Origin: Gammaproteobacteria bacterium
Lineage (GTDB): Bacteria; Gemmatimonadota; Gemmatimonadetes; Longimicrobiales; Gaopeijiaceae
Assembly (NCBI GenBank): GCA_009841185.1
Contig: VXMG01000121.1
Location: 20,271 to 84,270 of the forward strand
Reading direction: 5' to 3'
Length of the DNA: 64,000 nt
Both the position numbers and the translations under genes were made by a program. Each line of letters starts with the position of its first letter. The first letter of the stretch is position 1. This document shows, in pieces, positions 1-56,185 of this stretch. Under the pieces are notes generated by a model that was not told the DNA's origin, ran no database searches, and saw nothing but the letters and a program-made list of their open reading frames with translations.

Positions 1-1
1 C

Positions 2-3000
2 CGTGCCGTTCCGGGCAGCAGGGCGGTCACGGCGCGCCGCTTCACTTCCGGAAGTCTCGACCAGCATCCCGAGTGGCACGCGGAGACGCTTTTCATCGAC
101 GGACTGGACGAAGTCCGCGCGGGCCGTCCGGACGCCCTCAGGCCCATGGACCTGATCCTCGATCGACTCGGACACCTCGGGCGCCCCAATCTCAGACTCT
201 CGTGTCGAGCGGCGGACTGGCTGGGTCGGAATGACCTGCAAGATATCGCCTCGACTGCGGGGTACGAGGACGTCCGCGTCCTGCACCTCGAACCGCTCCG
301 GGGCGAGGACATCGTGCGCATCCTCGCCGACCTCGGCGTTCCGGATCCGCGCGGTTTCATACGTGAAGCCGGTGAGCGCGGCCTGGGGGGGCTGCTCGCC
401 AACCCGCACTCGCTCGAGCTGCTGGTCAAGGCCAAGGGGGGTGACGAATGGCCCCGCGACCGCCGCGCTACCTTCGTTCAGGCGTGCCGCAGACTCGCTC
501 GCGAGCCCAATCCGAAGCACCGCGCGGCTCAGCGCTCCGCGCCGATGGTCTCGCTCGACCGTATCATGGCCGCGGCCGGGCATCTCTCGGCACTCCTCCT
601 GCTGTCCGACAAGGAGCACGTCTCCATCGATGGATCGGAAGACCCTGACAGCCTCTGGCTCGAAGACATTCCCGTAGGTGACCACCCCGCGTTGCTGCGG
701 GCCCTGAAGTCCAACCTGTTCAGCGTGGATCCCGACGGCGGCTTCGTACCCCCGCATCGCCAACTGGCCGAGTTCCTCGGCGCGCGCTTCCTGCACACCC
801 GCATCGACTCCGGAGTCCCGGCGAGCCGGGTTCTCGCACTCATGACCGGTGAAGACGGCGTGGTCGTGACCGAGTTGCGCGGACTGTCCGCGTGGCTAGC
901 GGCCTTCGACGGATTGTCGCGACGGTGCCTCATCCGGACGGATCCCGTCGGAATTGCGCTATACGGGGACGTCCAGGGCTTCCGCAGCGACAAAAAGGAG
1001 AGTCTCCTTCGCGCGTTCGCGGAACGGGCCGACGAGATCAGGGCGTGGTCGTGGCCCCCGGTCGCGCTGGCGTCGTTGATCGACAGTCACACGGTCAGGC
1101 TGCTTCACGGCTATCTCGGGGATGAAGACAGAGGAGAGGGCCGGCAGGCCGTCGTCGGCTTACTCCTTAGCGGATTCGCTCATGCGAGCGGAGTCCAGCC
1201 GTCCCGCACCGTGCTGGAGCAGGCGGTCCGGGACGTGACCTGGCAGCCCCGGGTGCGACACTTGGCGCTGCGCGCGCTGCTCCACCACTCCGGAAGCCGG
1301 GAAGACGGGGTGCCAAGCCTGAGGGCGCTGCTCGACGACATCCGCGACGGACGTGTCGAGGATCGTGACGGTGAGCTGGCCGGCACCCTGCTGAGCGCGC
1401 TCTACCCGGATCATGTCGGGCCCGATGAGATCTGGGACTATCTGCTGCCCCGAAGGCCCTCCATGGTCGGAGCCTACATCCTGTTCTGGTCCACTCGCCT
1501 CCTGCGGAAGACACCGGGGAACGATGTCATTGCACTGATCCAGGCTTTGTTGGCGAAAGGGGAGGACTTCCGCCAGCAGCTCTCGGACCAGGGGTTCGGA
1601 GACGTGGTCCTGGCTCTCCTCGCCAACGCGCTGGCTGCCGCCGGTGACGACACTCGAGTCGCGACGCTCTACGACTGGCTCGAGTTGATGGATTTTGAGG
1701 AGTTCGGAGCTGCGCGGATGCGCGCGGCCGGGCATTCGGAAGTAAGCGGATGGCTTGCGCAGCGACCCAATCTGCAGAAGAAGCTTGCATTGGAGGGTTT
1801 GGGCCGACGGCTGCGTCACGACGATTCCGAGGTGAGCGGTGAAGGTCTCTACCGTGCGTGGATGGTCAGATCGACCATCTTCGGCGCCGGTGCCCCGGAA
1901 GACTTCGCCGAATGGTGTCTTACCCGCGCGGTCGAGGTGGCCGAGACTCGTCTCGAGGTCGCTCTTGCTCTCTTGGAGTGGAGCCGCCCCTGGCATGAAG
2001 AGCACGGCGTCTCAGGTGTTTCGATTGAAGATGTTCGGGAGGCGACGAAAGACGTGCCGGCGTTGCACGCCGAAGTCGAGCTGATCCTCGCCCCACCGAG
2101 GGAGCCGAAGAAACTGATGCTACTCCGGGAGGAAGACCGTGCGTACGCCCGCGAACGGAGACGGAAGAAAGCTGGATTCATTGCGCAAGTTCGAGAAAGC
2201 GCGCCGGAGCTAAGACAGGGCCGGTGTGCGCCCGGACTGCTGCACCGCATGGCCCAACCCTACCACGACTTCTTTCTCAGACAGCGGGTGGAATCACCCT
2301 TGATGCGGGTCGCGGACTTGCTCGACGGGGACGTTGACTTGGCCGAGACCGCAATCGAGGGGTTCCGTAAAGTCACCGAGCGCCCGGATCTCCCCACGCT
2401 GCGGGAATTCATACGCTTGGCCGAGCGCGATCGGATGTCCTACTTCGCGCTCCCGCTACTGGCCGGGTTCGCCGAGATGCCTCCCGAGTCCGTGGATTCC
2501 CTCAGTCCTGTCGAAATCGCGCGGGCGGTCGGGCTCTACTATCTCATTCCCCTCAACGTCGAGGGACATCCTGCGTGGTATCGGCGCGCCCTCGAGTCCC
2601 ATCCATCAGCCGTCGCCGAGGCCGCGATCAAGGTGTCGCGTTCACGCATCCGCGCTCGGCGTGATTGTCTGCACCTCTGGGAGTTCGCGCGCGAACCGTC
2701 CCATCGCGTGGTGGCTGGCCTGACGGTGCCATCGTTGCTGAGAGCGTTTCCGACGCGCTGCACCGAGCCTCAGGTCGCGGCGCTGCACGATGTGCTGCTG
2801 GCGGCAGTCCGATGGCAGCCCGACGGGATCGAGGAAGCCATTCGGATTCGTGCTGCCAGACCCGGCATGGACGTCTCGCAGGAAGCACTTTGGCTCGCTG
2901 CCGGGTTGTTCCTTTCGCCGGAGGAATTCCTTCCCGCGCTCGTGGCGTTCGTGGGAGAGGGTGAAGAGGTGCGGCTGAGGCAGATTGTGCGGTTTCTTGC

Positions 3001-3907
3001 TCCGGGCGACATGTCTCCATTGCCCATGCCCTGGGACACCGAAGTTCTGAAGACTCTGATCGAGCTCTTGGGCGGCCAATACACGCCCTGGCGGCCCGGG
3101 TACTCCGGAATGCTCTCCAGGGCCGAAGAGGATCGGCTGAAGGTGGAAGGTCTGGTAGCGCGTTGGGCAACCACTTTGGCGAACCGCACGGACCGCAAGT
3201 CCTGCGAGGCTCTTCAATCACTTGTCGAAAACCCTGCACTCCAGCCATGGCACTCCACGCTTGGCACTGAGCACGCCGAGCAGGTGGTAGCTCGCCGAAA
3301 CGCCACCTTCTCGGTGCCGGATCTGCTCGCGATTCAGAACACTCTGACCAACGATCGACCCGCCAGTCCCGTGGACCTGGCTGCGCTCGTGGCGGACAGG
3401 CTCGAAATCCTCGCTGCGCAGATCCAGCACGGAAATACGGATGACTGGCGTCAGTACTGGAACGAAGGCAGCAGCAGCTCGTTGCCAAGACCAAAGCACG
3501 AAGATGCGTGCCGGGACGCGCTTCTATCCGATCTACGGCAACTTCTGCCGGATGGCGTCGACGCTCAGCCCGAAGGGCAATACGCCAGGGATAAGCGGGC
3601 GGACATCCGCGTCTCCTTCAACGGCTCCGCCATCCCGGTGGAAATCAAGAAGAACTCCCATCGGAACCTCTGGAGTGCCGTCGCCAGCCAGCTTGTGCGG
3701 CAGTACACGATCGATCCCGACTCGTCCGGCTACGGCATCTATCTCGTGCTATGGTTCGGCCTCGGGAAGATGCCCGTTCCCCCCACCGGTCGCAGTCCAA
3801 AGACGCCGGACGCTCTGCGGGAGCGCCTCGAAGAGCAACTCGAGGGGCCCTACCGGCACAAGGTCACGGTGATCGTGATCGACGTGAGTGGATCGTCCGA
3901 CATCTGA
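2..3907 (+). CDS. STAND/NACHT-like NTPase, 5'-truncated by the window edge. Long helical-repeat middle region and a C-terminal PD-(D/E)xK-like nuclease module.
   Basis: The frame of ORF 146..3907 stays open back to nt 2 (RAVPGS...HAETLFIDGLDEVRAGRPDALRPMDL). 'LFIDGLDE' is a NACHT/STAND Walker-B motif. It is followed by 'LRLSCRAADW', 'LHLEPLRGEDIVRIL' and 'LANPHSLELL', typical of the post-Walker-B and winged-helix part. About 800 aa of L/A/R-rich helical repeats follow. The last ~130 aa carry E (KHEDACRD), D (ADIRVSF), ExK (PVEIKK) and Q (QLVRQY) with restriction-endonuclease-fold spacing. Confidence 0.75.
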   Translation, partial: RAVPGSRAVTARRFTSGSLDQHPEWHAETLFIDGLDEVRAGRPDALRPMDLILDRLGHLGRPNLRLSCRAADWLGRNDLQDIASTAGYEDVRVLHLEPLRGEDIVRILADLGVPDPRGFIREAGERGLGGLLANPHSLELLVKAKGGDEWPRDRRATFVQACRRLAREPNPKHRAAQRSAPMVSLDRIMAAAGHLSALLLLSDKEHVSIDGSEDPDSLWLEDIPVGDHPALLRALKSNLFSVDPDGGFVPPHRQLAEFLGARFLHTRIDSGVPASRVLALMTGEDGVVVTELRGLSAWLAAFDGLSRRCLIRTDPVGIALYGDVQGFRSDKKESLLRAFAERADEIRAWSWPPVALASLIDSHTVRLLHGYLGDEDRGEGRQAVVGLLLSGFAHASGVQPSRTVLEQAVRDVTWQPRVRHLALRALLHHSGSREDGVPSLRALLDDIRDGRVEDRDGELAGTLLSALYPDHVGPDEIWDYLLPRRPSMVGAYILFWSTRLLRKTPGNDVIALIQALLAKGEDFRQQLSDQGFGDVVLALLANALAAAGDDTRVATLYDWLELMDFEEFGAARMRAAGHSEVSGWLAQRPNLQKKLALEGLGRRLRHDDSEVSGEGLYRAWMVRSTIFGAGAPEDFAEWCLTRAVEVAETRLEVALALLEWSRPWHEEHGVSGVSIEDVREATKDVPALHAEVELILAPPREPKKLMLLREEDRAYARERRRKKAGFIAQVRESAPELRQGRCAPGLLHRMAQPYHDFFLRQRVESPLMRVADLLDGDVDLAETAIEGFRKVTERPDLPTLREFIRLAERDRMSYFALPLLAGFAEMPPESVDSLSPVEIARAVGLYYLIPLNVEGHPAWYRRALESHPSAVAEAAIKVSRSRIRARRDCLHLWEFAREPSHRVVAGLTVPSLLRAFPTRCTEPQVAALHDVLLAAVRWQPDGIEEAIRIRAARPGMDVSQEALWLAAGLFLSPEEFLPALVAFVGEGEEVRLRQIVRFLAPGDMSPLPMPWDTEVLKTLIELLGGQYTPWRPGYSGMLSRAEEDRLKVEGLVARWATTLANRTDRKSCEALQSLVENPALQPWHSTLGTEHAEQVVARRNATFSVPDLLAIQNTLTNDRPASPVDLAALVADRLEILAAQIQHGNTDDWRQYWNEGSSSSLPRPKHEDACRDALLSDLRQLLPDGVDAQPEGQYARDKRADIRVSFNGSAIPVEIKKNSHRNLWSAVASQLVRQYTIDPDSSGYGIYLVLWFGLGKMPVPPTGRSPKTPDALRERLEEQLEGPYRHKVTVIVIDVSGSSDI

Positions 3908-3910
3908 CGC

Positions 3911-5731
3911 TCACCTCACCTCCACCTCGTCCACCTCGAACGAAAAGGATCCCACCGGCCCCTCCGCCACAAACGCCAGCCCCGCAATGATTTCCGGCGT
4001 GGCCGTCGGGAAATCCTCCAGCCGGATCTCCACCTGCGTCCACTCCCCGGGCGCGATGAACGTCACGGTGGGCGGCGGCCCGGCCGGCTCCGCGCTGCTG
4101 ATCAGCATCACCGAGTACTGCCGCCCATCCCCGCGCGTCCGGAAGCGGATCGCCTCCCGGCCGGAGAAGTCCACGGGCTGCATGGGTTGCGCGCCGGGCA
4201 TCCAGATCACGCCCGCCCACGGGAAGGCGGCTCCCGGAGCGATCTCGCCGGTGACCGTCAGCGCACCGTCCCGCACGGCCACGTCGGCGGTGGAGGAGCC
4301 CCCGGCTAGCTGGTCCGTCGTCACGTCCCATGCGCCGAAGCTCGCCTCGAAGCCGTCCTCGAAGTCCGCGACCAGGGTTTCCGCGGGAGCGGGCTCGATC
4401 TCGGCCTGAGGCCCGGCGCCGGCGGAGCCGACCGCGCGATCCACCAGGTACCCGTCCTTCCAGATCCCGACGATCTCATGGCTGCTCGACGCGTCCTCCT
4501 CGAGGTCGCCGCGCACCAGCACCAGGTCGGCGAGATGGCCCTCGGCGATCCGGCCGCGCTCCTGAACGCCGAACGCGTCCGCCGCCACCGAAGTCGCAGC
4601 CGCCAGCGCCTCCGCGCTCCCCATGCCGGCGCGTGCGAGCAGGCGCAGCTCCCCGTGCATGGAGATTCCCGCCCCGGTTCCCGGGTTCGGGGCGTCCGTG
4701 CCCGCGACCAGCCGCACTCCGGCCGCGCGCAGCCTGCGGACGTTCTCCATCGCCACGTCTCCGCCCTCCGCGAGCCCGCCCGGGAAGCGGCCGTCGAGCG
4801 TCTGCCGCTGGATCGGCGAGAGCATCGCGTCGTCGGTCTCGCGCACCAGTTGCGCCACGGCGGGATCGTCGGCCGAAACCATGACCGAGAGCGTCGGGAC
4901 CACGAAGATGTCCGCCTCCGCGAAGCGCCGGGCATCCTCCTCGGAGACGACCTCGTCGCGCCACACGTGCACCAGCCCGTCGGCACCGAAGGCCATCGCC
5001 TCGAGAGCCGTCTCGAGGGTGCTCACGTGCACCACGGCTGCGAGTCCCTCCGCGTGCGCGGCCGCGATGACCGCGGCGACCGTCTCTCCCTCGAGCGACG
5101 CGATCTCCATGCCGAAGGCGCTGCCGTCCTCGTAGATGATCTTGATCCAGTCGGAGCCCTCGGCCTTGCGCGCCCTCACCCACTGAGCGGCCTCGTCCGG
5201 GCCGGTCAGGGTCTCCACGGGCATCCCGTACTGCGTGCCGTGCCCCTCCGGGGCGGTCGCGGTCATGCCGGCGGAGAAGAGGTCCGCCTGGGCGCCGCGC
5301 GCCACCTCCTCGCGCGCGGGCCGCATCGCCGCGGCGAAGGCCGGGTCCGTGGACTGGTCCAGCACCGTCGTCACCCCGAAGCGGAGCGCGTCTCTCAGCG
5401 AGGAGAGGAAGCTGTGCACGTGGCCGTCGATCAGCCCCGGGATCAGCGTGTGGCCCCGCCCGTCCACGCGCGGGAGGTCCTCGGGCAGGTCCAGCCTCTG
5501 GCCGGCGTGCCGGATCCTTCCGTCCTCGATCCACACGTCCCAGCCCTGCCGGAACGCCTCGCCGTCGAACGCCGTGACGTCCACGATCGCGAACGTTTCC
5601 TCGGGAACGCCCTGGGCCGGGCCCTCCGCGGCCTCCGGCACCGGCAGCGTCGCGAGCACGCCGGTGAAGACCGCGACTCCGACCACGAGCCAGGTCAGGC
5701 TGCGGCCCACGAGATAACGAGCACTCCTCAT
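3911..5731 (-). CDS. Membrane-anchored metal-dependent amidohydrolase with a C-terminal CIA30-like domain
   Basis: This is the internal ATG (MRSARYLVGRSLTWLVVGVAVF..., TM anchor) of the 894-aa track ORF, forming an ATGA overlap with the upstream permease stop. 'GLIDGHVHSF' is the amidohydrolase metal motif. The C-terminal ~150 aa (FRTRGDGRQYSVML...) resemble CIA30. Confidence 0.85.
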   Translation of the reverse strand: MRSARYLVGRSLTWLVVGVAVFTGVLATLPVPEAAEGPAQGVPEETFAIVDVTAFDGEAFRQGWDVWIEDGRIRHAGQRLDLPEDLPRVDGRGHTLIPGLIDGHVHSFLSSLRDALRFGVTTVLDQSTDPAFAAAMRPAREEVARGAQADLFSAGMTATAPEGHGTQYGMPVETLTGPDEAAQWVRARKAEGSDWIKIIYEDGSAFGMEIASLEGETVAAVIAAAHAEGLAAVVHVSTLETALEAMAFGADGLVHVWRDEVVSEEDARRFAEADIFVVPTLSVMVSADDPAVAQLVRETDDAMLSPIQRQTLDGRFPGGLAEGGDVAMENVRRLRAAGVRLVAGTDAPNPGTGAGISMHGELRLLARAGMGSAEALAAATSVAADAFGVQERGRIAEGHLADLVLVRGDLEEDASSSHEIVGIWKDGYLVDRAVGSAGAGPQAEIEPAPAETLVADFEDGFEASFGAWDVTTDQLAGGSSTADVAVRDGALTVTGEIAPGAAFPWAGVIWMPGAQPMQPVDFSGREAIRFRTRGDGRQYSVMLISSAEPAGPPPTVTFIAPGEWTQVEIRLEDFPTATPEIIAGLAFVAEGPVGSFSFEVDEVEVR

Positions 5732-6576
5732 CGGGATCTCCTCATCGAGAAACTGTCCGCGCGGCGGAATCCCAGCGCCGCCACGGCGAGGAAGACGAGC
5801 GTTTCGGCCACCAGAACCGCTAGGTGCATCGGGACCGGCTGCCCGGCGTCCATCGCGATGACCTTGAGCGCGAGCTGCGCGTGGTGATAGGCGGGAAGCG
5901 CCAGCGCGATGTCCTGCATGACATCCGGAAACATGTAGATGGGGAGCCAGAGCCCGGAGAGCATGGCCATGGGCAGGAAGACGAGGTTGACCACGGCGAC
6001 GGCCGAGCGGCCCCTGGCCCACGCGCCGATCGTCAGGCCCAGGGCACAGAACGGGATCACGCCGGCGAGCAGTACTCCGGCCAGCGCGAACCACTGCCAG
6101 CGGTAGAGCGCCACCCCCGCCGCGTGCGCGGCCATCAGGAACAGCGCCGCTACGACGACCGCGCCGAAGATGAGCGCCGCCATGACCTTGGCGAACAGGT
6201 AGGCGCCCGCGGGCATGGGCGTGGTCTGCTTCAGAAGCAGGACGCCGGTGTCGCGTTCGTTCGCGAGCCCGGCTCCGAAGCCGAAGAGCGCCGGACCGAG
6301 GACGCCGAAGACCCCGTAGGTCGCCAGCACGTAGGTCGGCACGGCCAGCGACACCCCGCGCGCGCCCATGATCACGCCGAAGAACAGGTAGAAGATGAGC
6401 GGGAACGCCAGCGTGGGAATGGCGAACATGGGTTCCCGCAACACCTCCACGAACTGGAAGCGCGCTTCGAGGAGGTAGATGTGGAAGCGGCGGGTAGGGG
6501 TCAGGCGATGGGCGTCGCGAGCTTGCATCGAAGCGCCCGCGCTGGGGGATGCCGCCTGTGCCGCCCTGCCGCTCAT
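5728..6576 (-). CDS. ABC-2 type transporter permease
   Basis: Multi-TM hydrophobic protein. ATGA overlaps couple it to the ABC ATPase upstream (6573-6576) and the amidohydrolase downstream (5728-5731). Confidence 0.8.
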   Translation of the reverse strand: MSGRAAQAASPSAGASMQARDAHRLTPTRRFHIYLLEARFQFVEVLREPMFAIPTLAFPLIFYLFFGVIMGARGVSLAVPTYVLATYGVFGVLGPALFGFGAGLANERDTGVLLLKQTTPMPAGAYLFAKVMAALIFGAVVVAALFLMAAHAAGVALYRWQWFALAGVLLAGVIPFCALGLTIGAWARGRSAVAVVNLVFLPMAMLSGLWLPIYMFPDVMQDIALALPAYHHAQLALKVIAMDAGQPVPMHLAVLVAETLVFLAVAALGFRRADSFSMRRSR

Positions 6577-7490
6577 TCCACGCCCTCTTCCCCATCCCGC
6601 GTCAGCTCGAGAAACGCCTCTTCGAGCCCTGCGGCCACGACGGTGAGGTCCGCCAGCGCCTCGTCACGCGCGAGCAGCACCCGCACCAGGGCCTCGGGCT
6701 GCGTCGTCAACGCCTCCAGATGCTGCCCCCGCGTCCGGGCATCGACCACGCCCGGCAGGCTTGCCACCTCATCGGGCGCGATCCGGGTGACGCAACGCAC
6801 CAGCCGCCCCGCCGTGCGCGACTTGATCTCCGCGGGGGTGCCCTCCGCGATCCGCCGCCCGTTGTGGATGACCACCACGCGGTCGGCCAGCGCGTCGGCC
6901 TCGTCCAGGTTGTGCGTGGTGAGAACGGTGGTGCGCCCGGACTCCCTGAGCGCCCGGATCTCGCTCCACAGCCGGTGCCGCGCATCGACGTCAAGCCCGG
7001 TGGTGGGTTCGTCCAGGAACAGCAGCTCCGGATCGCCCGCCAGCGCCAGCGCGAACATCACCCGCTGCTTCTGGCCTCCGGAGAGCTTCCCGTACCGGCG
7101 CCGGGCGAGATCCTCGAGGCCCGCCATGGCGAGCAGGCGCGAAGCCGGGATCGGCGCTGGATAGTAGGCGCGGAAGAGTTCGATGTGCTCGCGCACCGTC
7201 AGATTCGCGGAGATGCCCGAGATCTGGAGCATCGCGCCCCGACGAACCCGAACCTCCGGCGCTCCTGGAGCGAAGCCGAAGACCCTCGCCGCGCCCTCCT
7301 GCACCTGCAGGCTCCCGAGGAGAAGGCTGATGGCGGTGGTCTTTCCGGCGCCGTTGGGACCCAGCACCCCCAGCACCTCGCCCCGCCGGACCTCCAGATC
7401 GAGATCGTCCAGCGCCAGCACCGTTCCGTATCGATGTGTTACGCGCGAGAGGCTGGCGAGGGCAGGGCTATGCGCTGTACCGGCTTGCAT
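6573..7490 (-). CDS. ABC transporter ATP-binding protein
   Basis: Walker A 'GPNGAGKTT', ABC signature 'LSGGQKQR', Walker B 'LLFLDEPTTGLD'. Confidence 0.95.
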   Translation of the reverse strand: MQAGTAHSPALASLSRVTHRYGTVLALDDLDLEVRRGEVLGVLGPNGAGKTTAISLLLGSLQVQEGAARVFGFAPGAPEVRVRRGAMLQISGISANLTVREHIELFRAYYPAPIPASRLLAMAGLEDLARRRYGKLSGGQKQRVMFALALAGDPELLFLDEPTTGLDVDARHRLWSEIRALRESGRTTVLTTHNLDEADALADRVVVIHNGRRIAEGTPAEIKSRTAGRLVRCVTRIAPDEVASLPGVVDARTRGQHLEALTTQPEALVRVLLARDEALADLTVVAAGLEEAFLELTRDGEEGVE

Positions 7491-7587
7491 AGGGCTAGCC
7501 TACGAGCCGGCGGTCGGGGCTGTTTCGGGGGCGTCGGTGTAGCGGCCGTGACCACGCCGCCGACTCCCTGTAGTCTTAGTCACAAGA

Positions 7588-7614
7588 GCCCCGAGGGATG
7601 TCCACCCTCGGGGC
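7588..7614 (-). terminator. GC-rich hairpin directly after the HigA-like sORF
   Basis: GCCCCGAGGG-atgtcca-CCCTCGGGGC, a perfect 10-bp stem. The downstream U-tract is weak (tcttgtg). Confidence 0.3.
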
Positions 7615-7616
7615 CC

Positions 7617-7694
7617 CTACCTCAGCGTCTTGCTGCGCCCGAAGTCGTGCTTCAGCACTTCGCCGGGGTGGACCGGCTCCAGACGAGTCATCAT
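7617..7694 (-). pseudogene. 25-codon ORF resembling the N-terminus of a HigA/VapI-type antitoxin (relic or sORF)
   Basis: Minus-strand translation is MMTRLEPVHPGEVLKHDFGRSKTLR*. 'P(V/I)HPGE(I/V)L' is the characteristic HigA/VapI N-terminal motif. GGAGGGAG lies about 6 nt upstream of the ATG. The HTH part is missing. A 10-bp hairpin follows immediately. Confidence 0.35.
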
Positions 7695-7778
7695 GTAGCT
7701 CCCTCCGCGTACGCCCAACCGGGAAAATCAAAAGCGCAACTTTCGTTTTTCCCGTTTGCAGGTCGTCAATCCCCCCCC

Positions 7779-9455
7779 TCACACCCGCACCGTCGCCTGA
7801 AACGTCGGCGGGCGCCGCACGTTCGTCGCCTGCTCGAAGGCGTACGCCAGCCGGATCAGTGTCGCCTCGCTCCAGGCGCGGCCGCAGAGCGACATCCCGA
7901 CAGGGAGCCCGTGGATGAACCCCATGGGCACCGACATGTTGGGATAGGCCGCCATGGCCGGGGGCGTCGAGCATCCGCCCCCGCCTCCGCCGGACGCGTC
8001 CAGCGGGTCCTGCATGGCGGGGATGCCGGACGTGATTCCGACCAGAGCGTCCAGCTCGTGCTCGTCCATCGCGCGGTCGATCCCCTCGTCGCGCGAGAGC
8101 CGATGGCTCATCGCCAGTGCGTCGATGTAGCGCTGGTCGGTCAGCGGGCCGCGCTCCTGGGAGCGCACATGGAGCTCCTGCCCGTAAAGGGCGAGCTCCA
8201 GATCGGCATTCGCTTCGTTGTACTCGATGAGCTCCGCGAGCGACTTGATCGGCGCGTCGGGACCCAGCGAGGCGAGATAGGCGTTCAGATCCGCCTTGAA
8301 CTCGTGGTACAGCACCTCCATCTCGTATTCGTTGCCGAAGCGCAGCTCCCCGGGGAGCGTGACGGGATCGATCACCGTCGCGCCCTCCGCCCGCATGACG
8401 TCGAGCGCCTCCTCGAACAGGGCGTCGACGCGGCTGTCGAAGCCGGCATACTCGCGCAGCACGCCGACCCGGCCGCCATTCAGGCCGGCCGGGTCCAGCG
8501 CGCCGGTGTAGTCGGTGAGGAAGTTGCCCGCGCTCGCGGCGGTGAGCGGGTCGCGCGGGTCGACGCCGACCATTGTCCCGAGCATGATCGCCGCATCCCG
8601 CACGGTGCGCGCCATCGGGCCGGTGCTGTCCTGGCTGTGGGCGATGGGGATGACGCCGCCCCGGCTGTGAAGGCCGATCGTGGGCTTGATGCCGACCAGG
8701 CAGTTGCGCGAGGACGGGCCGACGATCGAGCCGTCGGTCTCGGAGCCGATCGTCGCGACCGCCAGGTTGGCCGCCGCGCCCGCTCCGGACCCGGAACTCG
8801 ACCCGCCCGGGGTGCGGTCGAGCGCGTAGGGATTCCTGCAGAAGCCGCCCCGGCCGCCGTCCCATCCGCGGCCGCTCCAGCCGGACGCCCCGAACTCGAA
8901 CGACTTCCAGCCCGCCCACTCGCTCATGTTCGCCTTGCCGAGCAGGAGCGCGCCCGCATCCCGCAGCCGCACGGCCACGAAAGCGTCCTGCGGCGCGATC
9001 GATCCGGCCAGCGCCGTCGAGCCGGCGGTGGTCGTCATCCCGTCCGCGGTATCGATGTTGTCCTTCAGCAGAAGGGGGATGCCGTGCAGCGGCCCCCGGG
9101 GCCCCGAGGCCTGGAACTCGCGGTCGAGCTCGTCGGCGATCTCTAGCGCGTCCGGGTTCACCTCGAGCACCGCGAACAGCCGCGGCCCCTGCCGGTTCAG
9201 CGCCTCGATGCGGTCGAGGTACATCTCCGTGATCGAGCGGCAGGTGTACTCGCCCGTCCGCATGCCCTCGTGGACTTCGTCGATCGTGATCTCGTCGAGA
9301 GCGAAGTCCGGCACGTTGCCCGGGGTGCTCTCCTGCCCCGCGCCACCGCGCCCCGAACCAGCGTCGCCGCCCGGAGCATCGCAGCCCCCGAGCGCGACCA
9401 GAGCGCCGGCCGCCGCGCCGGTGCCAATGAACGTGCGTCGATTCATTTCGGACAT
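7779..9455 (-). CDS. Amidase-signature family amidase, Tat/lipoprotein-type signal
   Basis: N-terminus MSEMNRRTFIGTGAAAGALVALGGC (twin-Arg plus lipobox-like Cys). 'GGSSSGSGAG' amidase signature. GAGGTGA Shine-Dalgarno sequence before the ATG at 9455. Confidence 0.9.
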   Translation of the reverse strand: MSEMNRRTFIGTGAAAGALVALGGCDAPGGDAGSGRGGAGQESTPGNVPDFALDEITIDEVHEGMRTGEYTCRSITEMYLDRIEALNRQGPRLFAVLEVNPDALEIADELDREFQASGPRGPLHGIPLLLKDNIDTADGMTTTAGSTALAGSIAPQDAFVAVRLRDAGALLLGKANMSEWAGWKSFEFGASGWSGRGWDGGRGGFCRNPYALDRTPGGSSSGSGAGAAANLAVATIGSETDGSIVGPSSRNCLVGIKPTIGLHSRGGVIPIAHSQDSTGPMARTVRDAAIMLGTMVGVDPRDPLTAASAGNFLTDYTGALDPAGLNGGRVGVLREYAGFDSRVDALFEEALDVMRAEGATVIDPVTLPGELRFGNEYEMEVLYHEFKADLNAYLASLGPDAPIKSLAELIEYNEANADLELALYGQELHVRSQERGPLTDQRYIDALAMSHRLSRDEGIDRAMDEHELDALVGITSGIPAMQDPLDASGGGGGGCSTPPAMAAYPNMSVPMGFIHGLPVGMSLCGRAWSEATLIRLAYAFEQATNVRRPPTFQATVRV

Positions 9456-51685: not shown

Positions 51686-53926
51686 ATGCGCTTCCTCTCC
51701 GCCGCCCTCACTGTCTCCGTCGTCGCCCTCGCGGCGTTCGCCTCGCCCCTGGCCGCTCAGCAGCGCCCCTTCACGTTCATGGATGTCCAGGAGCTGAAGC
51801 GCGCCGGCTCGTGGACGCCGAGCCCGGATGGAGCGTGGATGCTCTACACCGTCACGACCCCGGACTGGGAGGCGGCCGATTCCCAGACCGACATCCACCT
51901 GGTGTCGCTCGACGAGGGCGTCCCGTCGAGCCGGCAACTCACCTACACGGACGACAGGAACGAGACCAGCCCGGCCTGGGCCCCGGACGGCTCGTTCTTC
52001 GTCTTTTCGTCGAACCGCGACGGAGACGACAACCAGCTCTACATGATGCGCCACGACGGCGGCGAGGCCCGCAAGGTCACCGACGCCGGGGAAGGGGTGT
52101 CGGGGTTTGCGTTCAGCCCGGACGGGCAGTGGCTGGTGTACCGTTCCGGCGAGAGCGACCGGGAGCAACTGTACCGTCTTCCGGCCGGCGACCTGGTCGG
52201 AGGCGAGTCCGAGCAGCTCACCGACGGCGACGCCGGGGTCGACCAGTGGGACTTCTCCCCCGACGGAAGCCGCATCTACTTCGCGCGCCCCGACTCCTTC
52301 GACGAGGACGAGGTGAAGCGGCGCGAGCAGGGCTTCACGGTCGACATCCGCAACGCCGTCACCCCGCTCTCGAGCCTGTGGAGCGTGGACGTCGCGTCGG
52401 CCGCCGAGCGGCGCGAGACGAGCGACGCATCCTACAGCGTCAACAGCTTCACGCTCTCCGACGATGGCCGCTGGATCGGCATCACGGGCGGCTCGCCCGA
52501 GCGCTACGAGCGCAACATCACCGCGCAGCGGCTCTATGCGGATCTCTATCTGAAGGAGATCGCGACGGGTGAGATCGAACGGCTGACCGACAACTACGAG
52601 ATCGGCGAGGGCGGGATGAGTTTCTCGCCCGACGGGCGCTGGATCGCCTTCTCGGCACCGGACGACATGGAGCGCTACTCGATGACCGAGAACCGCGTCT
52701 ACATCCGCGAAGTGGATGACCGCGGGGGCGCGTTCCGGAAGCTGGGCGCGGACTTCGATCAGAGCTCGAGCGTCGGGTTCTGGTCCGATGACTCGGAGAC
52801 CATCTATTTCAACGCCGGCGTGACGGTGACCACGCAATTGCACGCGCTCGACGTGGGGAGCGGCGAAGTTCGGCAGCTCACCGAGGAGCGGGCCGCGCTC
52901 TCGGTGTCCCGCGACGACGACACGGGCACCCTCCTCATCGGCTACAGCGACCCGAAAACGCCCCCCACCGTGTTCACCGTGGCTAGCGTGGACGACGTGC
53001 CCGACCGCTCGGCCTGGACCCGGCTCGTGGACGTGAACCCGCAGATCCGCGACATCGCTCTCGGCGAGGAAGTCGAGGTGAACTGGCGCTCCTCGGACGG
53101 CAAGATGGTCGGGGGCGTGCTGGTTTATCCGGTGGGCTACGAGGAGGGGACGCGCTATCCGCTCATCGTCGCGATCCACGGGGGACCGGCGTCGGCGGAT
53201 GTGCTTCGCTTCAACGGCGGCTACAACGCGCAGGTGTACGCGGGCGCGGGCTACGCCGTCCTCAAGCCCAACTACCGCGGCTCGCGCAACTACGGAAACG
53301 CGCACCGCACCGACATCGTGGGCGACTACTTCACGATGGGCTACGAGGACATCATCACCGGCGTGGACCATCTCATCGCCGAGGGCATCGTGGACGGCGA
53401 CCGCATGGGCGCGCTGGGCTGGAGCGCGGGCGGGCATTGGTCCAACTGGATCCTCACCCAGACCGACCGCTTCAAGGCGATCAGCTCCGGCGCCGGGACG
53501 ATGAACTGGATCAGCATGTACGCGCAGAGCGACGTGCAGCGGAACCGCCAGTTCTACGTCGGCGACGGCTTCCTGTACGAGGACTTCGACACCTATTTCG
53601 ACCAGTCGCCGCTCAAGTACATCACGAACGCCGTCACCCCGACCATGATCCATGTGGTGGAAGGCGATCCGCGCGTGCCGAGCCCGCAGTCGGTCGAACT
53701 GCACATGGCGCTCAAGAAGCTGGACGTGGCGACCGAGCTGTTCATGTATCCCGGACGCAGCCACGGCATCCCGGACCCGCGCAACCGCCTGGTCAAGGCC
53801 GTAAGCGAGATGGCCTGGATGGACTACTACGTGCGCGGCATCGGCGAGAAGTTCGAGTGGCGGCAGGTGCTGGAGACGCTCGAGGGGGAGGACGGGCCGG
53901 TGGTGGTGTCGGATCCGCAACGGTAG
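51686..53926 (+). CDS. S9 family serine peptidase with a TolB-like propeller (paralog class of 22850..25387)
   Basis: Signal peptide. Repeated 'SPDG' propeller motifs. Catalytic 'GWSAGGHW', 'VEGDPRVP', 'GRSHGI'. Confidence 0.9.
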   Translation: MRFLSAALTVSVVALAAFASPLAAQQRPFTFMDVQELKRAGSWTPSPDGAWMLYTVTTPDWEAADSQTDIHLVSLDEGVPSSRQLTYTDDRNETSPAWAPDGSFFVFSSNRDGDDNQLYMMRHDGGEARKVTDAGEGVSGFAFSPDGQWLVYRSGESDREQLYRLPAGDLVGGESEQLTDGDAGVDQWDFSPDGSRIYFARPDSFDEDEVKRREQGFTVDIRNAVTPLSSLWSVDVASAAERRETSDASYSVNSFTLSDDGRWIGITGGSPERYERNITAQRLYADLYLKEIATGEIERLTDNYEIGEGGMSFSPDGRWIAFSAPDDMERYSMTENRVYIREVDDRGGAFRKLGADFDQSSSVGFWSDDSETIYFNAGVTVTTQLHALDVGSGEVRQLTEERAALSVSRDDDTGTLLIGYSDPKTPPTVFTVASVDDVPDRSAWTRLVDVNPQIRDIALGEEVEVNWRSSDGKMVGGVLVYPVGYEEGTRYPLIVAIHGGPASADVLRFNGGYNAQVYAGAGYAVLKPNYRGSRNYGNAHRTDIVGDYFTMGYEDIITGVDHLIAEGIVDGDRMGALGWSAGGHWSNWILTQTDRFKAISSGAGTMNWISMYAQSDVQRNRQFYVGDGFLYEDFDTYFDQSPLKYITNAVTPTMIHVVEGDPRVPSPQSVELHMALKKLDVATELFMYPGRSHGIPDPRNRLVKAVSEMAWMDYYVRGIGEKFEWRQVLETLEGEDGPVVVSDPQR

Positions 53927-53963: not shown

Positions 53964-55052
53964 ATGATCCCGTTGGTCTGGCTGGCGGTGCGGATCGCGG
54001 CCGCCATCGGAGTCGTTGTCGCAACCTTCGGCTACGCCCTAACCGGGGTCCATACCGACGTTCTGCTTGGGGCGGGATTCGGGGTTGCCGTGGGAGTCGG
54101 CGTCGGTCTCCGCGGGGGATCGGGCAGCCATCCCTGGACCGGCATCCTGATCGGCTCGGCGGTCGGCGTCGTCGCGGCGTACCTGAGCGGAGCGATGAGT
54201 GTTGGCTGGGGCGTCATCCTGCCGCCTCTTCTGCCCCTGGCGGTCGGCCTGATCGACGGGCTCGGCCCGTCCCCTCTCTCCGGGTATCGGGATGTGATCC
54301 GGGAGACCTTCATCCTCGCCGTCCTGCTGGGCCTGGGGTTCATCCCCGCGCTGGTCGCGGGCGATTTCGATCTGGAACCACTCCTGGCGGTATTCCCTCT
54401 CCTCGCCATGCCCTGGACCGCGCTGCTGGTCGGCCTCGTCAGCCGGCGCCGTGAGGGATGGGACGGCGCAACGCCTCCGCGCCTGCTGGTCCTCGGCGCG
54501 GTTGCGCTTCCCGTCCTGATGGGTCTGGCGTTTGGTTTCGGGGTGATCCGTGAGGACGATGGACTTACAGGCGCCATGGCGGTCCTGGGGGTCGTCCTGA
54601 CCATCATCCTCTCCATCCTGGTGATTCCGCTGGTCGCGTTTCTCGGGGGGCGCGCCGCCGCCAACTGGCTCCGCCCGCGGCTTGAGGTATACGGCCAGCT
54701 CGCGGCCTACCTCCGGGTCATGTGGGTTCCGATCGGTGGGTTCGCGGTGGGCTATCTGACCATCATCTTTCTCTTTGCGGGCTTCTACGGGACGCTGGAG
54801 CGCGTTACCCCGGGCTCGTTTGCCGGGGCGGGCACGGCGATCACCGACTGGCTGTCCTTCGCGTTCTTCACCGCGCTGGGGCAGGACTTCACGGCGCTCT
54901 CTCCGGTTTCGCTCGGCGCACGGATGCTGGTCGGCGCACACCTCATCCTCTCGGCGGGATGGGCGCTGGTGCTGTTCGCGGCGGTGATGTCTTCCATCGG
55001 CCCGAAGCTGGACCGCATCGCACGACACCTCGCGGACGACGGCCGCGACTGA
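53964..55052 (+). CDS. Polytopic membrane protein with an ion-channel-pore-like C-terminus (copy 1)
   Basis: About 8 hydrophobic segments. The C-terminal helix-loop-helix 'GYLTIIFLFAGFYG...DWLSFAFFTALGQDF...LVGAHLILSAGWALVLFAAV' resembles a 2-TM pore domain with a non-canonical filter. Confidence 0.7.
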   Translation: MIPLVWLAVRIAAAIGVVVATFGYALTGVHTDVLLGAGFGVAVGVGVGLRGGSGSHPWTGILIGSAVGVVAAYLSGAMSVGWGVILPPLLPLAVGLIDGLGPSPLSGYRDVIRETFILAVLLGLGFIPALVAGDFDLEPLLAVFPLLAMPWTALLVGLVSRRREGWDGATPPRLLVLGAVALPVLMGLAFGFGVIREDDGLTGAMAVLGVVLTIILSILVIPLVAFLGGRAAANWLRPRLEVYGQLAAYLRVMWVPIGGFAVGYLTIIFLFAGFYGTLERVTPGSFAGAGTAITDWLSFAFFTALGQDFTALSPVSLGARMLVGAHLILSAGWALVLFAAVMSSIGPKLDRIARHLADDGRD

Positions 55053-55063
55053 GGAGAAGGGGA

Positions 55064-56185
55064 TTGCGCACTACGATCTTGCGTGGGTTCCGTATTGCGG
55101 CTGCCATCGCTCTCGTCGTCGTGCCCTTCGGGTACTCGATCACGGGGATCCACCCCGATGTTCTGATGGGAGCGGGATGCGGGCTCGCGGTCGGGGTAGG
55201 CGTCGGTCTTCGCGGAGGCGCGAGGGGCGGGGCGTGGACCGGCATCCTGATCGGCTCGGTGGTCGGGATCACCGTTGCGCTGATCGCCGGCTCGATTCCC
55301 GGCACCCAATGGGGACTGCTCGGTCCGCCGGCCCTTGCGCTGGCAGTCGGCATGATCGACGGTCTGGGCGGGGCAGCGCTTGCCGGCTATCGGGATGTGT
55401 GCCGCGAGACGTTCATCATGGCAGTCCTGCTGACCCTGGGGTTTTTCCCGGCCCTGGGTGCGCTGGGCATTTTGTCCGCCGTACGTGCTGAGGGAATCTT
55501 GTCCGTTGCCGGGGCAATCCTGGTCGTACCCGTCTTTGCGATGCCCTGGGTTGCGCTCCTGGCAGGCCTCCTGAGCCACCGCGGTGAGGGGTGGCGCGAC
55601 ACCCGTCCTCCTTGGCTGCTGGTGCTGGGGGCTGCGTTGCCGGTTGCCTTGCTGGTCTACCTGTTTGCAACCGGTGTATTTGAAGAGTTCCGCGGGTTCT
55701 CGGGCATCCGATTGATCGGCCGGATCGCCTCGCAGCTGTTCTGGGGAGCGTTGGTGTATCCAGGGGCCGCATTTCTTCTGGGACGCGCCGTCACCCGCTG
55801 GCTCCAGCCGCGCCTGCGCGTGTACGCCCGGCTTGCCGACTACCTGCGCGTCATGTGGGTGCCCATCGGCGGATTCGCGGTCGGCTATCTCACCATCATC
55901 GTTCTGTTCGCCGGATTCTACGGCATGCTGGAGCGCTTCCAGCCCGGGGCGTTCTCAAGCGCCGGAACCGGGGTCATCGACTGGCTCTCGTTCGCGTTCT
56001 TCAACGCCCTCGCTCAGGACTATGCGGCCATAGTCCCGGTATCGGTCGCTGCCCGGGCGCTTGTCGGCGCGCACCTGATCCTGTCGGTGGGCTGGGCGCT
56101 GGTCCTGTTCGCGGCCGTGATGTCCTCCATCCAGCCCAGACTGGACCGGATCGCGCGGAGCCACGCGGAGGAAGCCGAGGACTGA
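55064..56185 (+). CDS. Tandem paralog of 53964..55052 (copy 2)
   Basis: Probable TTG start after GAGGAG (track ORF 54722.. is a read-through artefact). Collinear with copy 1, and near-identical over 'YLRVMWVPIGGFAVGYLTII...LVGAHLILS.GWALVLFAAVMSSI'. Confidence 0.7.
   Translation: MRTTILRGFRIAAAIALVVVPFGYSITGIHPDVLMGAGCGLAVGVGVGLRGGARGGAWTGILIGSVVGITVALIAGSIPGTQWGLLGPPALALAVGMIDGLGGAALAGYRDVCRETFIMAVLLTLGFFPALGALGILSAVRAEGILSVAGAILVVPVFAMPWVALLAGLLSHRGEGWRDTRPPWLLVLGAALPVALLVYLFATGVFEEFRGFSGIRLIGRIASQLFWGALVYPGAAFLLGRAVTRWLQPRLRVYARLADYLRVMWVPIGGFAVGYLTIIVLFAGFYGMLERFQPGAFSSAGTGVIDWLSFAFFNALAQDYAAIVPVSVAARALVGAHLILSVGWALVLFAAVMSSIQPRLDRIARSHAEEAED

Follow-up and report, generated by a model that had tools for sequence, protein, structure and literature searches.

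Several described systems resemble the gene considered here. In the antiphage proteins of the Avs and bNACHT groups (Gao 2022; Kibby 2023; Lee 2026, PMC13581612) a STAND/NACHT NTPase is joined to a large variable helical region, and a restriction-endonuclease-fold domain is the likely effector in some of them, for example the restriction endonuclease domain of bNACHT25. Two NCBIfam families, NF058535 ('NACHT domain-containing antiphage protein EruA') and NF058534 (HyoA), describe proteins in which a NACHT domain and a long helical region are followed by a C-terminal domain, and PDC-S01 of PADLOC combines an ATPase with a PD-(D/E)xK domain in one protein, according to its description in PMC12988326. 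The window analysed, 64,000 nucleotides of contig VXMG01000121.1 (assembly GCA_009841185.1, positions 20,271 to 84,270), opens inside a gene for an Eru-like NACHT protein. An earlier reading of the window, made from the sequence alone and referred to below as the original prediction, took this gene for a possible single-gene defence or sensor protein. The analysis indicates instead that it is, on balance, probably gene 2 of an Eru-type antiphage module that comprises two genes and moves horizontally, with a mechanism proposed by analogy.

The expected logic, ligand-induced oligomerisation leading to nuclease activation, would be that of Avs and bNACHT. Unlike those systems, the Eru-like protein has its nuclease-like domain at the extreme C-terminus and lacks an N-terminal effector, its gene is tightly coupled to a gene for a second ATPase-nuclease, and it matches none of the Avs/bNACHT models of PADLOC.

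The gene and its family

The reading frame is open from the left edge of the window at nucleotide 2 to a TGA at 3905–3907, a length of 1301 codons. Its translation is 100% identical to the corresponding part of the 1350-residue protein of cluster P0001, which has 2654 homologs at E≤1e-5; the frame is therefore a real gene. The residues absent from the window are the 49 N-terminal ones, MRLIVPRSVTVVDGDRSRSAPLAEFRSERAYVLLGDPGAGKTEAFRVES, which include the P-loop GDPGAGKT and whose codons lie upstream. The same gene is present on an ENA metagenome scaffold (L001) and on a Logan contig (L002), both of which supply the upstream DNA, the start of the window corresponding to position 10147 of L001. 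The window and L001 are identical over the first 6009 shared bases and diverge after that, from about position 6010 of the window onward. All of the motifs named in the original prediction, which had described a frame open to the window edge with a NACHT Walker B 'LFIDGLDE' and a terminal domain with E/D/ExK/Q spacing, were located: 'ADIRVSF', 'PVEIKK' and 'QLVRQY' fall within nucleotides 3599–3700, with 'RADIRVSF' around 3602, 'PVEIKK' at 3635–3652 and 'SQLVRQY' around 3689. Conservation was counted in an alignment of 76 sequences, comprising homologs from 80 genomes of more than 12 phyla that are 30–73% identical. The features of the gene are as follows.

2..3907, + strand: coding sequence of the Eru-like NACHT protein P0001, residues 50–1350, stop codon included.
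2..930, + strand: remainder of the NACHT NTPase module with a helical and winged-helix part, residues 50 to about 360 (AlphaFold2 model of residues 1–500, Foldseek; 3' boundary approximate).
89..112, + strand: Walker B LFIDGLDE, in agreement with the signature D[GAS]hDE specific to NACHT.
932..3490, + strand: long Leu/Ala/Arg-rich region, presumed alpha-helical and presumed sensor, residues about 360–1212 (conservation profile, AlphaFold2 model of residues 300–500).
3491..3889, + strand: C-terminal PD-(D/E)xK-like domain, Pfam DUF8371 (PF28130), residues 1213–1345 (AlphaFold2, Foldseek, precomputed Pfam annotation).
3500..3502, + strand: E1216, helix glutamate of the putative active site, kept in 76/76.
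3602..3604, + strand: D1250, at the start of the beta strand 'RADIRV', kept in 76/76.
3641..3649, + strand: E1263-I-K1265, the ExK motif in 'PVEIKK'; E kept in 76/76, K kept in 74/76 and replaced by R in two sequences.
3689..3691, + strand: Q1279, in the helix after the ExK strand, kept in 75/76.

By profile comparison the window protein is a divergent full-length member of an NCBI-labelled antiphage family. Residues 7–1345 of P0001 align with positions 1–1318 of the 1318-position EruA model in one collinear stretch (E=6.6e-250, 832.9 bits; 793 bits for the window fragment), and protein and model agree in length and in the succession of NACHT domain, long helical region and C-terminal domain. 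NF058535 is an equivalog model with a curated cutoff of 1000 bits. The score of P0001 lies under this cutoff and the protein is thus assigned to a divergent clade that NCBI does not automatically name EruA. A homolog from Thauera linaloolentis (L046) in the same alignment family does exceed the cutoff, with 1028.3 bits, and its gene is preceded by the same upstream partner as the gene of the window, the two partner proteins being 50% identical. The match of P0001 to HyoA is weaker but its alignment likewise extends through the C-terminal region.

The original prediction had regarded a C-terminal nuclease placed after the repeats as a different architecture. The layout is unusual for a STAND protein and the reasoning was sound, but curators had already catalogued it, in NCBIfam as EruA and HyoA and in Pfam as DUF8371. 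What is added here is structural and conservation evidence for the DUF8371 tail as a probably active PD-(D/E)xK domain, the lack of an N-terminal effector, the near-constant coupling to a DUF4143 ATPase-nuclease that PADLOC counts as stand-alone, and the size of the family, which comprises at least 1300 clusters at 50% identity in many phyla. A full-library profile search with the tail matched 3913 cluster representatives (clustering at 50% identity) at E≤1e-3, 1327 of them at E≤1e-30, and among the best 150 matches the domain was always at the extreme C-terminus of proteins of about 1350 residues or of fragments of such proteins. A homolog search with the tail alone likewise gave nothing but fragments from this family, none of them with a new architecture.

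Other routes to an assignment gave nothing. A local Pfam scan of the NACHT protein, with a Pfam set that does not contain PF28130, had no match, and no family of PADLOC-DB v2, Avs and bNACHT models included, matched it at E≤1. The full-length alignment profile searched against PDB sequences gave noise only, no solved structure being similar in sequence. An annotated EruA of E. coli, sought by distant blastn with the Pantoea gene described below, gave no match. The DefensePredictor paper, the metagenomic-selection preprint and the STAND paper of Lee et al. mention neither the names EruA, HyoA, Eru and Hyo nor DUF4143.

Domain organisation of the NACHT protein

The original prediction had identified a NACHT-type STAND NTPase and this was borne out. 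The Walker B residues D82, D85 and E86 are kept in 76/76 sequences and position 83 is G or A, which agrees with the D[GAS]hDE pattern defined in the Kibby et al. preprint as the NACHT-specific Walker B signature. The Walker A motif (GxxxxGK[ST]) is GDPGAGKT at residues 35–42 of P0001, just outside the window, with K41 kept in 76/76. The AlphaFold2 model of residues 1–500 had a mean predicted local distance difference test score (pLDDT) of 67, the NTPase part being mostly at 75–90, and the ten best Foldseek matches of this model were NLR proteins only, among them rabbit NOD2 (E=1.2e-6), NLRC4, NAIP5-NLRC4 and NLRP3, with generic AAA+ ATPases ranking lower. The Pfam NACHT model (PF05729) did not match P0001 and with a homolog reached no more than E=0.063 and 13.5 bits, short of the gathering score. 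The upstream sequence, whose recovery had been proposed as a check for a P-loop and for any N-terminal effector, contains the P-loop and no such effector. Ahead of the strand that leads into the P-loop there are only about 26 residues, modelled as two short strands, and a P-loop at residues 35–42 leaves no room for an effector domain.

The C-terminal domain had been predicted to have a restriction-endonuclease-like fold, and this assignment is accepted on the combination of fold, motif and conservation. The AlphaFold2 model of the tail, built with 58 sequences, had a pLDDT of 84.7 and a predicted template modelling score of 0.81, and consists of a helical lead-in followed by an alpha-beta-beta-beta-alpha-beta core (H86–100, E106–109, E121–125, E128–136, H142–154 and E164–170, numbered in the modelled 220-residue C-terminal fragment, H and E being helix and strand). 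On this model E1216 stands where the first core helix begins, D1250 immediately precedes strand 2, strand 3 carries E1263 and K1265, and Q1279 falls in the next helix. The fifty best Foldseek matches in the PDB were almost exclusively PD-(D/E)xK enzymes, with weak E-values throughout. They include Can2, which was the best (E=2.8e-3), SfsA, Cdn1, Hjc (probability 0.97, root mean square deviation 3.6 Å over 89 columns), R.BspD6I, PspGI, McrC, Bax1, NucS/EndoMS and RecU, as well as the cap-snatching endonucleases of arenaviruses and bunyaviruses; the TM-scores were low. The named matches in BFVD were for the most part restriction endonucleases, RecU and Hjc, together with proteins labelled 'PD-(D/E)XK nuclease superfamily'.

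The acidic residues, whose loss in homologs the original prediction had named as a result that would speak against a nuclease, are invariant (E1216, D1250 and E1263), and the tail as a whole is conserved to the same degree as the NTPase. The DUF8371 tail, whose precomputed PF28130 annotation is carried by C-terminal fragments of the family, is therefore probably an active PD-(D/E)xK domain, judged from model and alignment. In the model it shares the core fold and the E...D...ExK arrangement with Can2/Card1, Cap4, McrC and Hjc, PD-(D/E)xK nucleases activated by oligomerising partners, but it has no detectable sequence-profile relation to them and differs in its helical lead-in of about 85 residues and in the protein to which it is fused. 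When the 58 tail sequences were searched singly against Pfam at E≤10 no consistent family emerged, with stray matches to SfsA (E=0.17) and pPIWI_RE_REase (E=0.013) in 1–2 of the 58, and the profile of the tail alignment searched against PDB sequences gave noise only. Comparison by hhalign of the tail with the DUF4143 domain of the upstream partner was not significant (P=0.01, probability 4%), with the D and the ExK in register.

Between the two conserved ends lies the least conserved stretch of the family. The mean column identity is 0.32–0.38 at residues 650–800 and 1050–1100 compared with 0.6–0.7 for the NTPase and the tail. This region had been described as a very long helical repeat. It is rich in Leu, Ala and Arg and is helical within the part that was modelled, residues 300–500, but hhalign comparisons among four blocks of the region detected no internal sequence repeats (P≥0.02). 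The term 'helical' is thus plausible and the term 'repeat' unproven.

The upstream partner and the proposed module

All open reading frames within 7 kb of the homolog were clustered at 81 loci, and a single conserved neighbour emerged, a gene of about 420 codons directly upstream on the same strand, which at this locus lies outside the window. It was found at 74 of the 81 loci by open reading frame calling and at 78 by tblastn. Real loss of the partner at every locus missing from the first count is thereby partly rejected. The most frequent arrangement of the two genes is an overlap of four nucleotides, and in the present locus the TGA of the partner overlaps the GTG start of the NACHT gene as GTGA, with GGAGGGGG just upstream. 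Start/stop overlaps of four nucleotides are typical of translational coupling, and the two genes appear from their sequence to be coupled in this way. The reading as a single-gene system is not supported, given that the DUF4143 ATPase gene precedes the NACHT gene at 78 of 81 loci.

The partner protein matches Pfam DUF4143 (E=9e-30) and AAA_14 (E=2e-17), and it matches PDLC04791, a sub-model of PDC-S01 in PADLOC, end to end (E=9.4e-131, positions 2–394 of 395). DUF4143/COG1373 is group 100 in the PD-(D/E)xK catalogue of Steczkiewicz et al. (PMC3424549), and the partner has the ATPase plus PD-(D/E)xK architecture described for PDC-S01. It differs from PDC-S01 as catalogued, an unvalidated single-gene candidate, in that this one sub-family is nearly always in an operon with an NLR-like gene. 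Among 70 partner sequences G34-K35-T36, D110-E111, E329 and D357 are invariant, E370 is kept in 69 and K372 in 67. Since the motifs are kept in both proteins, each protein of the module combines an NTPase with a putatively active nuclease domain, which makes two of each.

The proposal that these two genes form an Eru-type antiphage module is based directly on the identity of their domains, on motifs that are invariant in both proteins, on their linkage in an operon, and on a setting that is patchy, mobile and in part a defence island, as described in the last section. For the trigger, the oligomerisation, the nuclease activity and the requirement for the partner we argue by analogy with Avs and bNACHT. 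The first gene would supply an AAA_14 P-loop ATPase of about 420 residues fused to a DUF4143 PD-(D/E)xK domain, and the second an NLR-like protein with an N-terminal NACHT NTPase, a variable helical region of about 850 residues and a C-terminal PD-(D/E)xK nuclease-like domain. Recognition of a phage-derived cue would fall to the variable helical region, by analogy with Avs and bNACHT, and nucleotide-dependent oligomerisation of the NACHT domain would gather the C-terminal nuclease domains into active units. The assembled units may then cut DNA so that the infection is aborted or the phage DNA degraded, and the partner ATPase-nuclease would probably act with the NACHT protein as co-effector or regulator.

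A stronger version, put forward tentatively as a possibility somewhat short of an even chance, is that EruA-type proteins and their dedicated PDC-S01 sub-family make up an obligate machine of two proteins, combining two NTPases with two PD-(D/E)xK nucleases, in which a STAND sensor with its own C-terminal nuclease also recruits or licenses a second ATPase-nuclease. Such a machine would have an effector logic for STAND proteins unlike the paradigm of Avs and bNACHT with N-terminal effectors, and would provide part of PDC-S01 with a first functional context. If the two proteins do cooperate, the module would offer a two-component NLR-like nuclease system that is tractable to study, and would go some way towards explaining PDC-S01, which is among the commonest uncharacterised defence candidates.

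Several results weigh against the proposed module. As regards the family, P0001 scores under the equivalog cutoff (833 versus 1000 bits), the PADLOC 2023 models fail to recognise the NACHT protein, and a literature search for EruA, HyoA, Eru and Hyo found no antiphage paper in the library searched, so that the antiphage label derives solely from the NCBI curated family name. As regards the tail, no single Foldseek match was better than E=1e-3 and no sequence profile from Pfam or the PDB ties it to a named PD-(D/E)xK family. As regards the operon, plasmid homologs in Pantoea ananatis and Vibrio campbellii, which score 772 and 777 bits against EruA, have no partner, and this indicates that the partner may be dispensable in some lineages. 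Finally, many of the genes that flank homologs elsewhere are housekeeping genes.

The partner-less Pantoea homolog (L083, 2915–5623, on the conjugative plasmid NZ_CP054910.1) is situated about 350 nucleotides downstream of a gene annotated as 'TrlF family AAA-like ATPase', and the product of this gene might be an alternative partner.

The plasmid homologs that stand alone lead to the alternative that survives best, namely that the NACHT-nuclease protein suffices by itself and that the DUF4143 ATPase travels along with it, either as a defence gene of PDC-S01 type in its own right or as an accessory. The absence of the partner from 3 of the 81 genomic loci points the same way, as do the NCBIfam nomenclature, which names an 'A' component only and has no model for a partner, and the treatment of PDC-S01 by PADLOC as a single-gene candidate. 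However, the partner adjoins the NACHT gene at the other 78 loci, in more than 12 phyla, while all other neighbours differ, the start and stop codons overlap by four nucleotides, and the partner belongs to one dedicated PDC-S01 sub-model and is 50% identical between distant hosts. A sufficient single protein is accordingly judged unlikely.

It could also be that the nuclease that kills is that of the partner. The tail of the NACHT protein would then be a nucleic-acid-binding sensor or tether and not an effector, and the NACHT protein would serve to activate the DUF4143 nuclease. The tail does occupy the position usual for a STAND sensor, Kibby et al. report 'hybrid' bNACHTs that carry an additional small domain at the C-terminus, for which a role as tether was proposed, and the partner possesses a complete ATPase and an intact E...D...ExK arrangement. 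Against this, the catalytic-type residues of the tail are invariant among homologs that are only 30–73% identical and the tail is among the best-conserved segments of the protein, the pattern expected of an enzyme and not of a degenerate binding module. The tail is also retained by the homologs that have no partner. This explanation is considered quite improbable.

Genomic setting, distribution and other features of the window

The original prediction placed the gene in the context of defence, and the locus agrees with this. Upstream of the gene pair, which spans 8736–14053 of L001, this scaffold (positions 1–8691) encodes a Z1-domain protein, an EcoRII-C restriction enzyme, Vsr, a C5 DNA methylase with a helix-turn-helix domain (Dcm) and a class I methyltransferase, together with several open reading frames without a Pfam match (415, 198, 75, 64 and 50 residues). 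The guanine plus cytosine (GC) content is 56–65% in this upstream stretch, 63–67% in the pair, and 69–72% in the flanking amidohydrolase and ABC-transporter genes. The high-GC genes start 3 nucleotides past the stop codon, the border of the island coinciding with the stop at 3907. The step in GC content and the defence genes place the gene at the right-hand end of an island that is rich in defence genes and was acquired horizontally. The gene beyond the border is given below.

3911..5731, − strand: convergent amidohydrolase gene, 606 residues, which does not belong to the system and marks where the lower-GC island ends on the right (gene calls, Pfam on L001, GC profiles).

In the other 80 genomes the flanks are not conserved. 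The 122 immediate neighbours that were scanned include clear defence or mobile-element genes, namely type I, II and III restriction-modification genes, DpdF, a reverse transcriptase, PD-Lambda-5_B, PDC-S11, mad2, and DDE and IS21 transposases. Homologs that are housekeeping and lie outside defence islands had been listed in the original prediction as a result that would count against a defence role. Defence genes and transposases recur beside homologs, and many neighbours are of the housekeeping kind.

Homologs were found in more than 12 phyla, including Gemmatimonadota (Longimicrobiales), Chloroflexota, Latescibacterota, Acidobacteriota, Nitrospinota, Verrucomicrobiota (Opitutales) and Bacteroidota (Rhodothermales), and in Alpha-, Beta- and Gammaproteobacteria, and they occur on 29 plasmids. 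The clade of the window protein is present mostly in metagenome-assembled genomes of Longimicrobiales/Gemmatimonadota, Gammaproteobacteria and other phyla. This patchy and mobile distribution fits a defence module. A function outside immunity, such as a STAND regulator or a role in DNA maintenance or in a mobile element that stands beside restriction-modification genes by chance, is highly improbable. In its favour, many STAND clades are not defensive (PMC13581612), housekeeping flanks are common and the literature search turned up no experimental paper. Against it, the family carries the antiphage label from NCBI curation, its distribution across phyla is patchy and includes plasmids, some genomes hold several paralogs, defence genes and transposases recur as neighbours, and the island is lower in GC content.

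Some metagenome-assembled genomes contain two copies of the partner plus NACHT module, 30–70 kb apart or on different contigs (L020/L079 in OZ242219.1, L036/L071 in OX639991.1 and L044/L063 in the Arenicellales assembly CBDCQQ01). The duplicates suggest diversification of paralogs, which is typical of immune receptors. A partial homolog of about 30% identity, covering residues 284–1346, is encoded at the end of an unannotated contig from human faeces deposited as 'Bacteriophage sp.' (MT835554.1, 30136–33324), and phages or prophages may therefore be a further vehicle for the family.

No tRNA genes or Rfam families were found anywhere in the window. Far to the right of the system, an open reading frame of 746 residues at 51686–53926 (+ strand) begins with what resembles a signal peptide and contains a region like a beta-propeller and the serine-hydrolase motif 'GWSAGG'. 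Judged by eye only, its product could be a secreted peptidase of family S9, either a prolyl oligopeptidase or a dipeptidyl peptidase. This frame is followed at 53964–56185 (+ strand) by two tandem paralogous genes for polytopic membrane proteins, at 53964–55052 and about 55100–56185, which have long conserved blocks in common. The C-terminal part of these proteins looks, again by eye only, like an ion-channel pore module, and the tandem genes account for the AT skew of the region 54000–56100, which is strongly negative (−0.35 to −0.48).

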